From Escherichia coli (lineage in GTDB: Bacteria; Pseudomonadota; Gammaproteobacteria; Enterobacterales; Enterobacteriaceae): DNA of 64,000 nucleotides. Each line of letters opens with the position of its first letter. Position 1 is the first letter of the stretch. The stretch lies in NCBI RefSeq assembly GCF_041248615.1, contig NZ_CP158426.1. One strand, 5' to 3'. Made by a program: the position numbers and the translations under genes. Positions 44,795-45,003 of this stretch are shown piece after piece. The notes below the pieces were generated by a model, which searched no databases, was not told the DNA's origin, and was given only the letters and a program-made list of their open reading frames with translations.

Positions 44795-45003
44795 TATCAT
44801 GTGAATATATTGTTTTATCATTTATATTTAATATGTGAATGGTAAAACAATCTGTTATTAGTGGAATAACTAATGTAATTGAGTGAAATCACTAATTTAA
44901 ATAATTAAGAATATATTTATTCTTTATGACATGCCTTTCTGAATAATCAGGGATACAATATTAAAGCTTATTTTTGACTGTATCATTGTCACAGGGAAAG
45001 TGC

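Follow-up and report, generated by a model that had tools for sequence, protein, structure and literature searches.

A single AT-rich trough lies between yfgJ and sinH

We analysed a 64-kb window of Escherichia coli DNA (NZ_CP158426.1; all position numbers refer to this window, taken as a whole) in which sinH, encoding an inverse-autotransporter adhesin, follows the small zinc-ribbon gene yfgJ, and we asked what lies in the spacer between these two genes. The end of the yfgJ open reading frame (ORF) at 44794 and the sinH ATG at 45004-45006 delimit this spacer exactly, at 209 bp on the plus strand (44795-45003). We interpret it as the promoter/operator region of a horizontally acquired operon of sinH, sinI and a large adhesin gene, the E. 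coli 'ila' locus, which is homologous to Salmonella CS54; a review describes the 'ila' locus as acquired, with sinH co-transcribed with sinI. An original prediction, made from the letters of the sequence, had described the same roughly 200 bp as an AT-rich leader of sinH bearing repeated motifs and A/T tracts, typical of horizontally acquired genes silenced by H-NS and suggestive of a conditionally expressed island.

The composition of the spacer is extreme. Its guanine-cytosine (GC) content is 24.4% compared with 52.3% for the window, a z-score of -5.84 relative to all 209-bp windows of the 64 kb, of which 0.11% are equally low, and it forms the sole trough below 33% GC within the 64 kb. The neighbouring sequences stand at 46% (yfgJ), 51% (der, which precedes yfgJ) and 46% (the 5' part of sinH). 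TpA steps occur at about three times their average rate in the window (13.4 vs 4.3 per 100 bp). The predicted extent and AT-richness were thus both borne out by calculation, and the finer claims fared unevenly. TGTGAAT/ATGTGAAT does occur twice, at 44800 and 44834, among three TGTGAAT in total on both strands of the 64 kb, and as a pre-chosen word two copies are reached in 0.2% of dinucleotide shuffles; some repeated 7-mer is present in 54% of shuffles, so that the repeat by itself has no significance. Its literal spelling is also allele-specific, since alleles 95-98% identical read TATGAAT, CATGAAT, CTTGAAT or TTTAAAT instead of keeping TGTG. A/T tracts are there, but few and unphased: the spacer holds three runs of at least four (TTTT, AAAA and TTTTT) and no phased A-tracts.

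Conserved anatomy of the spacer across genera

To describe the spacer comparatively we used a set of 19 yfgJ-sinH spacers from Escherichia (coli, albertii, whittamii and others), Salmonella, Citrobacter, Pseudocitrobacter and Superficieibacter, with some comparisons drawing on 17 or 18 of the 19. All orthologous spacers have 22-34% GC, and most measure 192-242 bp, those of Salmonella enterica and salamae reaching 333-345 bp. Between genera they are largely unalignable (52% mean column identity), except for three elements: a 17-nt operator-like block, a -10 hexamer and the Shine-Dalgarno sequence (Table 1). The block is present in 18/19 spacers and is the best-conserved element of the spacer, with a relative entropy of 1.10 bit per position vs 0.30-0.33 in its flanks, and it has no second copy within the 64 kb. 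The hexamer was found in 17/17 spacers, usually as the sole match to its cross-genus pattern 3' of the block, and reads TATAAT in Salmonella and C. freundii. The distance from block to -10 is 33-34 nt in 15 genomes and 22 nt in two, Superficieibacter sp. 1612_C1 and Escherichia sp. MOD1-EC7003; 22 nt is exactly one helical turn less, which fits a requirement for the block to face RNA polymerase.

We found no -35 element with at least 4/6 matches for the TACAAT hexamer, and a scan of the spacer for canonical sigma-70 promoters (-35 and -10 each with at least 4/6 matches, 16-18 nt apart) returned 0 sites. The position of this -35-less hexamer predicts a transcription start near 44966, which would place the block at about -62 to -46 and leave a leader of about 38 nt. 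The word leader, as originally applied to all 209 bp, would therefore fit a small part of them, most of the spacer being untranscribed promoter/operator. The Shine-Dalgarno sequence AGGGA (44993-44997) lies 6-8 nt before the ATG and is conserved as AGGGA/AGGA. The Salmonella enterica spacer has about 135 bp more than the others; this additional stretch adjoins yfgJ and is GC-rich, palindromic and similar to repetitive extragenic palindromic (REP) elements, and the block and the TATAAT hexamer stand at the same distance from the ATG as in E. coli. A direct repeat with 22-nt spacing, AGTGGAATAACTAATGTAA / AGTGAAATCACTAATTTAA, is kept only within the allele family of the window, and its second copy carries a semi-conserved GTGA..TCAC mini-palindrome.

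LeuO-like sites and GAATAT half-sites

The LeuO core site, known from cas and leuO, is a 19-bp palindrome whose 7-bp half-sites flank a 5-bp spacer (Fragel et al., PMC6698644). By scanning the K-12 casA-cas3 and leuL-leuO spacers we recovered this core, ATATTCA-N5-TGAATAT, as ATATTCATACTGTGAATAT (cas) and ATATTGATTTGGTGAATAT (leuO). Among the sinH spacers, 10/19 have a LeuO-like site with at most three mismatches in the stretch from roughly -179 to -191 relative to the ATG, which in the window is the 11/14 palindrome of Table 1, and two more have only four-mismatch matches nearby. Some orthologues reach 12/14, and Citrobacter sp. MGH106 carries a perfect 14/14 core at the same position, a match reached in 0/300 shuffles. 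The 64 kb contain six LeuO-like matches, two of them in the spacer; the second (44943-44961, ATAATCA-gggat-ACAATAT, at most three mismatches) overlaps the -10 hexamer.

The half-sites are also enriched as a class. Across 18 spacers, [T/G]GAAT / ATTC[C/A] occurs 61 times vs 30.1 +/- 5.2 expected, a number reached in 0/400 shuffles, and GAATAT/ATATTC occurs 25 times vs 8.8 expected. They cluster near -202, -180, -168, -96 (within the block) and -52. The TGTGAAT repeat is thus an allele-specific spelling of a real motif class, the [T/G]GAATAT half-sites.

H-NS/StpA occupancy and LeuO response of homologous loci

The spacer of uropathogenic E. coli CFT073 is identical to that of the window at 203/209 positions (97%), and chromatin immunoprecipitation sequencing (ChIP-seq) of H-NS and StpA exists for this strain, with bound genes called from the per-gene average signal (Hustmyer 2022, PMC9765446). 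There, sinH has an H-NS occupancy of 0.116 and counts as bound in wild-type cells as well as in the mutants of rfaH and stpA (PMC9765446, Data set S1 sheet 1E). The adjoining 216-nt gene c3032, which we recognised as the zinc-ribbon gene homologous to yfgJ, reaches 0.407 for H-NS and 0.367 for StpA and is called bound in each of the five strains, the hns and hns stpA mutants among them (PMC9765446). StpA gives a similar picture for both genes (PMC9765446). The sheet of bound genes runs yfgH, sinH, c3032, yphF, and guaA, guaB, xseA and the tags c3029-c3031 (expected to comprise sinI and a ratA-like gene) are absent from it (PMC9765446). Overall, 795/4818 CFT073 genes are bound, and in the portion of the list that gives 84 bound genes 21 exceed 0.407 (PMC9765446). 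A strong signal on the short c3032 together with a low average on the 2.2-kb sinH is the pattern expected of a local patch centred on the spacer; the supplements examined hold no coordinate-level ChIP or sigma-70 peak at the locus.

Expression data come from strain SMS-3-5, whose promoter belongs to the same allele family as that of the window. Its SinH protein, named IatB, was undetectable under any laboratory condition, and in a screen of 30,000 Tn5 insertions 12/12 up-mutants drove leuO (Goh 2019, PMC6714894). Overexpression of LeuO raised iatB mRNA about 15-fold, yet the protein was still undetected (PMC6714894). Up-regulation of sinH during human urinary tract infection has been reported in the literature. 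A sigma-54 site described inside Salmonella sinH (PMC3844500) is not found in the window. Taken with the ChIP values of the homologous locus, where both flanking genes are bound, these data agree with two further parts of the original prediction, that sinH belongs to the type of acquired gene silenced by H-NS and that its expression is conditional.

A conserved hairpin in the sinH signal-peptide codons

Downstream of the promoter, the sinH mRNA is predicted to fold into a near-perfect 22-bp hairpin within the signal-peptide codons (+29 to +76 of the coding sequence), with a folding free energy of -37.1 kcal/mol (z = -11.5). An alignment of 14 sequences, drawn from five genera, has 75.6% of its cells paired vs 33-49% for slid controls; eight pairs are changed on both sides, and the covariation score is 0.289 vs 0.205 +/- 0.02 in shuffles, 0/500 of which reach it. 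Only Escherichia has the stem in its long form. The many G.U pairs argue for selection at the level of the sense RNA. The hairpin possibly gates translation or serves as an RNase III target, and we conjecture that it may lie behind the mismatch between mRNA and protein seen by Goh 2019 (PMC6714894).

Table 1 Positions of the features of the yfgJ-sinH region in the 64-kb window
Feature	Position	Strand	Remarks
Spacer	44795-45003	+	209 bp
Operator-like block	44904-44920	+	17 nt; window ATTAAGAATATATTTAT, cross-genus consensus TTTAGGAATnnATTTAG
-10 hexamer	44954-44959	+	TACAAT; cross-genus pattern TAnA[AC]T
Predicted 5' untranslated region	44966-45003	+	about 38 nt; start near 44966 predicted from the -10 position
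LeuO-core-like 7-5-7 palindrome	44824-44842	unstranded	ATATTTA-atatg-TGAATGG; 11/14; contains the second TGTGAAT
First TGTGAAT motif, TGTGAATAT	44800-44808	+	GGAATAT in other E. coli alleles; literal form not kept in close alleles
Imperfect inverted repeat	44804-44856	+	24-nt arms, 79% complementary; as RNA, a 23-pair AT-rich hairpin
Direct repeat	44860-44900	+	spacing 22 nt; kept only within the allele family of the window
mRNA hairpin	45032-45079	+	22-bp near-perfect stem, 4-nt loop
yfgJ	44579-44794	+	double zinc-ribbon protein, 71 amino acids; Pfam Zn_ribbon_6
sinH, 5' part	45004-46237	+	signal peptide and inverse-autotransporter beta domain (Pfam IAT_beta, E = 1.9e-108); cut by the insertion sequence
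IS21-family element	46238-48818	+	2581 bp; istA 46431-47972, istB 47984-48733; Pfam rve / Mu-transpos_C_2, IstB_IS21

A probable xenogeneic-silencing promoter

We consider it likely that the spacer is a xenogeneic-silencing promoter, in which a patch of H-NS/StpA covers a weak promoter lacking a -35, LeuO acts as counter-silencer and a further factor probably binds the block. This reading builds on the composition and the conserved anatomy, on the binding of H-NS and StpA to both flanking genes in CFT073, and on a gene that in SMS-3-5 is silent yet inducible by LeuO. The core promoter would be weak, with the TACAAT hexamer, no recognisable -35 and a start near 44966. H-NS and StpA would cover the TpA-rich DNA, 76% A+T, as a short patch with its centre on the spacer, which would keep the operon silent in ordinary culture. 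LeuO would most likely bind the distal cluster of [T/G]GAATAT half-sites at 44800-44842, including the candidate 7-5-7 palindrome, and so relieve silencing, and full activation would probably also need a putative factor on the 17-nt block, held in fixed helical phase to the -10.

Several observations weigh against this reading. The candidate LeuO site of the window has the exact spacing and the T-N11-A signature, but a match this good arises in 21% of spacer shuffles (P = 0.21), and the spacers of Salmonella enterica and C. freundii are without a LeuO-like site at that position. No hns insertion appeared among the Tn5 up-mutants of SMS-3-5 (PMC6714894). The CFT073 values are per-gene averages from another strain, with no peak call on the spacer itself, and the body of the island has 48-52% GC and is not AT-rich, which makes an extended H-NS filament unlikely. 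The curvature calculation that the original prediction had proposed gave a modest signal, with a wedge-model mean at the 87th percentile and one local peak at 44975, and the H-NS high-affinity 10-mer TCGATAAATT, a feature that is not obligatory, has no match in the spacer at two or fewer mismatches.

Alternative explanations for silence and for the repeats

The block raises a different account of the silence, in which the -35-less promoter mainly lacks a dedicated block-binding activator (for example, RcsB with a FixJ/NarL-type partner), H-NS binding is incidental to AT-richness and LeuO acts indirectly. We regard this as rather unlikely as the main cause, and it can coexist with silencing by H-NS. 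It draws on the block being the best-conserved spacer element, on its distance to the -10 (33-34 or 22 nt in 17/17 genomes), on the missing -35 and on the LeuO-induced mRNA that gave no detectable protein (PMC6714894). Compared with RcsB-type sites (the RcsAB box TaAGaatatTCctA and the BglJ-RcsB site wwTTCykA), the left half of the block, TAAGAAT/TAGGAAT, reads as a perfect half-site: it corresponds to the RcsB half of the RcsAB box, fits TN(G/A)GA, and its complement TATTCYTA fits wwTTCykA. As with RcsB sites, its place is upstream of a promoter that has no -35, and the distance is phase-locked. Unlike the RcsB homodimer box TN(G/A)GA-N4-TC(T/C)NA, it continues as TAAGA-ATAT-ATTTA, whose second half ATTTA has no TC, and we rejected it as such a box. 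The Salmonella RcsB regulon paper does not mention sinH. H-NS binding at the locus has been measured, and LeuO is a classical H-NS antagonist. We also compared the block with sites for MarA/Rob, SlyA, Lrp, PmrA, IHF and Fis and with the GAD box; none fits in both sequence and spacing.

The distal repeats invite other readings. The inverted repeats and TGTGAAT words at 44800-44856 may form the 3'-end hairpin of a der-yfgJ transcript, a weak terminator or stabiliser, rather than protein operators; we find this possible but doubtful, and a 3'-end structure and a LeuO operator are mutually compatible. The hairpin starts 10 nt past the yfgJ stop (free energy -20.3 kcal/mol, z = -6.0), significant hairpins of differing sequence occupy the same place in about 11/19 orthologues, and its use of G.U pairs makes it a better structure as sense RNA than as DNA, where the arms are 79% complementary. 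On the other hand, no U-run follows the AT-rich stem, a scan for intrinsic terminators returned 0 sites, and the hairpin centre moves between lineages, whereas [T/G]GAATAT/ATATTC[CA] stay at about -202, -180 and -168 and one lineage has a perfect LeuO core. That the TGTGA words are CRP half-sites of a catabolite-controlled promoter is very improbable: 44834-44849 (TGTGAATGGTAAAACA) does match TGTGA-N6-TCACA with two mismatches, but such matches are at chance level in the window (24 found vs 26.9 expected), and TGTG is lost even in alleles 95-98% identical. We would likewise give hardly any weight to the idea that the spacer codes for a small RNA, a leader of the riboswitch type or a small protein. 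Stable local hairpins speak for it; against it, an Rfam scan at a permissive E-value gave only chance matches of microRNA models on two hairpins (E >=0.02), ORFs wholly inside the spacer are limited to 22-24 amino acids on the minus strand, and the predicted start leaves about 38 nt transcribed.

We prefer a promoter silenced by H-NS/StpA and relieved by LeuO, to which a further layer might be added. More tentatively, control could be two-tiered across at least five enterobacterial genera, with an activator on the block acting above H-NS/LeuO and the 22-bp mRNA hairpin gating translation or mRNA survival. The activator could then be RcsB with an auxiliary partner, which would tie the adhesin to envelope or surface sensing, and a hairpin acting, for example, as an RNase III substrate would explain LeuO-induced mRNA without detectable protein.

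The acquired island, yfgJ and the interrupted sinH

The 901 bases around the spacer are 100% identical to E. coli isolate 362 (NZ_OW967178.1), in which der is followed by the zinc-ribbon gene yfgJ, an intact sinH (725 amino acids), a gene of the sinI family, an adhesin gene of 8 kb and convergent xseA. The spacer and the 5' end of sinH occur in 1743/5426 complete E. coli genomes. In island-free E. coli, the stop of yfgJ and the end of xseA overlap and leave no spacer, an empty site that, together with the patchy distribution, upholds the predicted horizontal acquisition. Relative to island-free strains, der is 98% identical and similarity ends at the der stop codon; within 44517-44794, the island-linked der-yfgJ spacer is unrelated to the island-free allele, and YfgJ of the island has 68% amino-acid identity to island-free E. 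coli YfgJ. C. freundii carries the yfgJ-sinH-sinI-adhesin module in another chromosomal neighbourhood. The divergence at the der stop and the linkage in C. freundii indicate that yfgJ travels with the island, and this small double zinc-ribbon gene appears to belong to the mobile module and not to the surrounding core of which the original prediction had spoken; the variable segment starts right after the der stop. A strong GC-rich hairpin (44527-44556, GGTTTCCCTTTCC-acac-GGAGAGGGAAACC) lies directly 3' of the der stop, without a U-run, and is not in the island-free allele.

In the window, an IS21-family insertion sequence interrupts sinH behind its beta-barrel domain, at about codon 411. The junctions, mapped by comparison with the intact allele, show a duplication of 7 bp of the target, GTTATGC. 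The junction between the element and sinH occurs in 1/5426 complete E. coli genomes, NZ_LT599825.1, and the end of the element has many copies elsewhere. Among the close alleles of strains SCAID WND1-2022 and Z1323CEC0015, one has TATAAT instead of TACAAT as its -10 and one has sinH annotated as frameshifted. The frameshifted allele and the insertion found here suggest recurrent inactivation of sinH.

Relation to known systems and significance

The K-12 cas and leuO promoters resemble that of sinH in having an AT-rich, H-NS-bound upstream region and in being activated by LeuO overexpression, and look-alikes of their core occur at a fixed place in the sinH spacers. Unlike the K-12 sites, the candidate of the window is degenerate (11/14). 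To our knowledge, the conserved block has no counterpart in cas or leuO. Within the protein family, Yersinia inv is under RovA/H-NS control, with distal and proximal antagonist sites. The E. coli inverse-autotransporter adhesin genes fdeC and yeeJ are H-NS-repressed (PMC6714894). As judged by description only, fdeC, yeeJ and inv share with sinH the protein family, laboratory silence, an AT-rich promoter and relief of silencing through an antagonist that binds DNA. Their regulators differ, with temperature and H-NS acting on fdeC and RovA on inv, and LeuO alone is experimentally supported for sinH. The proU operon of E. coli and Salmonella is H-NS-silenced and has an RNase III-processed hairpin within its coding region as well as a downstream H-NS element. 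sinH is proU-like in combining an AT-rich promoter bound by H-NS with a long, near-perfect and conserved stem early in the coding mRNA; that RNase III would cleave the hairpin of sinH is purely conjectural, and the downstream H-NS element is a property of proU.

The sinH spacer is an ordinary kind of element, and its main properties were already contained in public data, namely the ChIP supplement and the LeuO screen. Newly described here are its cross-genus anatomy, the operator-like block, the LeuO-like sites and the mRNA hairpin; our literature search found no dedicated study of the sinH promoter beyond Goh 2019. For annotation, it is a routine example of how an extreme, short AT trough before an acquired adhesin gene marks an H-NS patch.

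SinH is both a fitness factor of extraintestinal pathogenic E. coli and a leading antigen for vaccines (PMC9937491, PMC12525524). In culture the protein goes unseen, and its control region can now be placed, with good probability, among silenced promoters of the H-NS/LeuO type. The mRNA hairpin and the promoter elements hint at why transcript and protein levels may diverge, and the conserved elements (the -10, the 17-nt block, the LeuO-like sites and the hairpin) are the bases to mutate in order to find the inducing signal.
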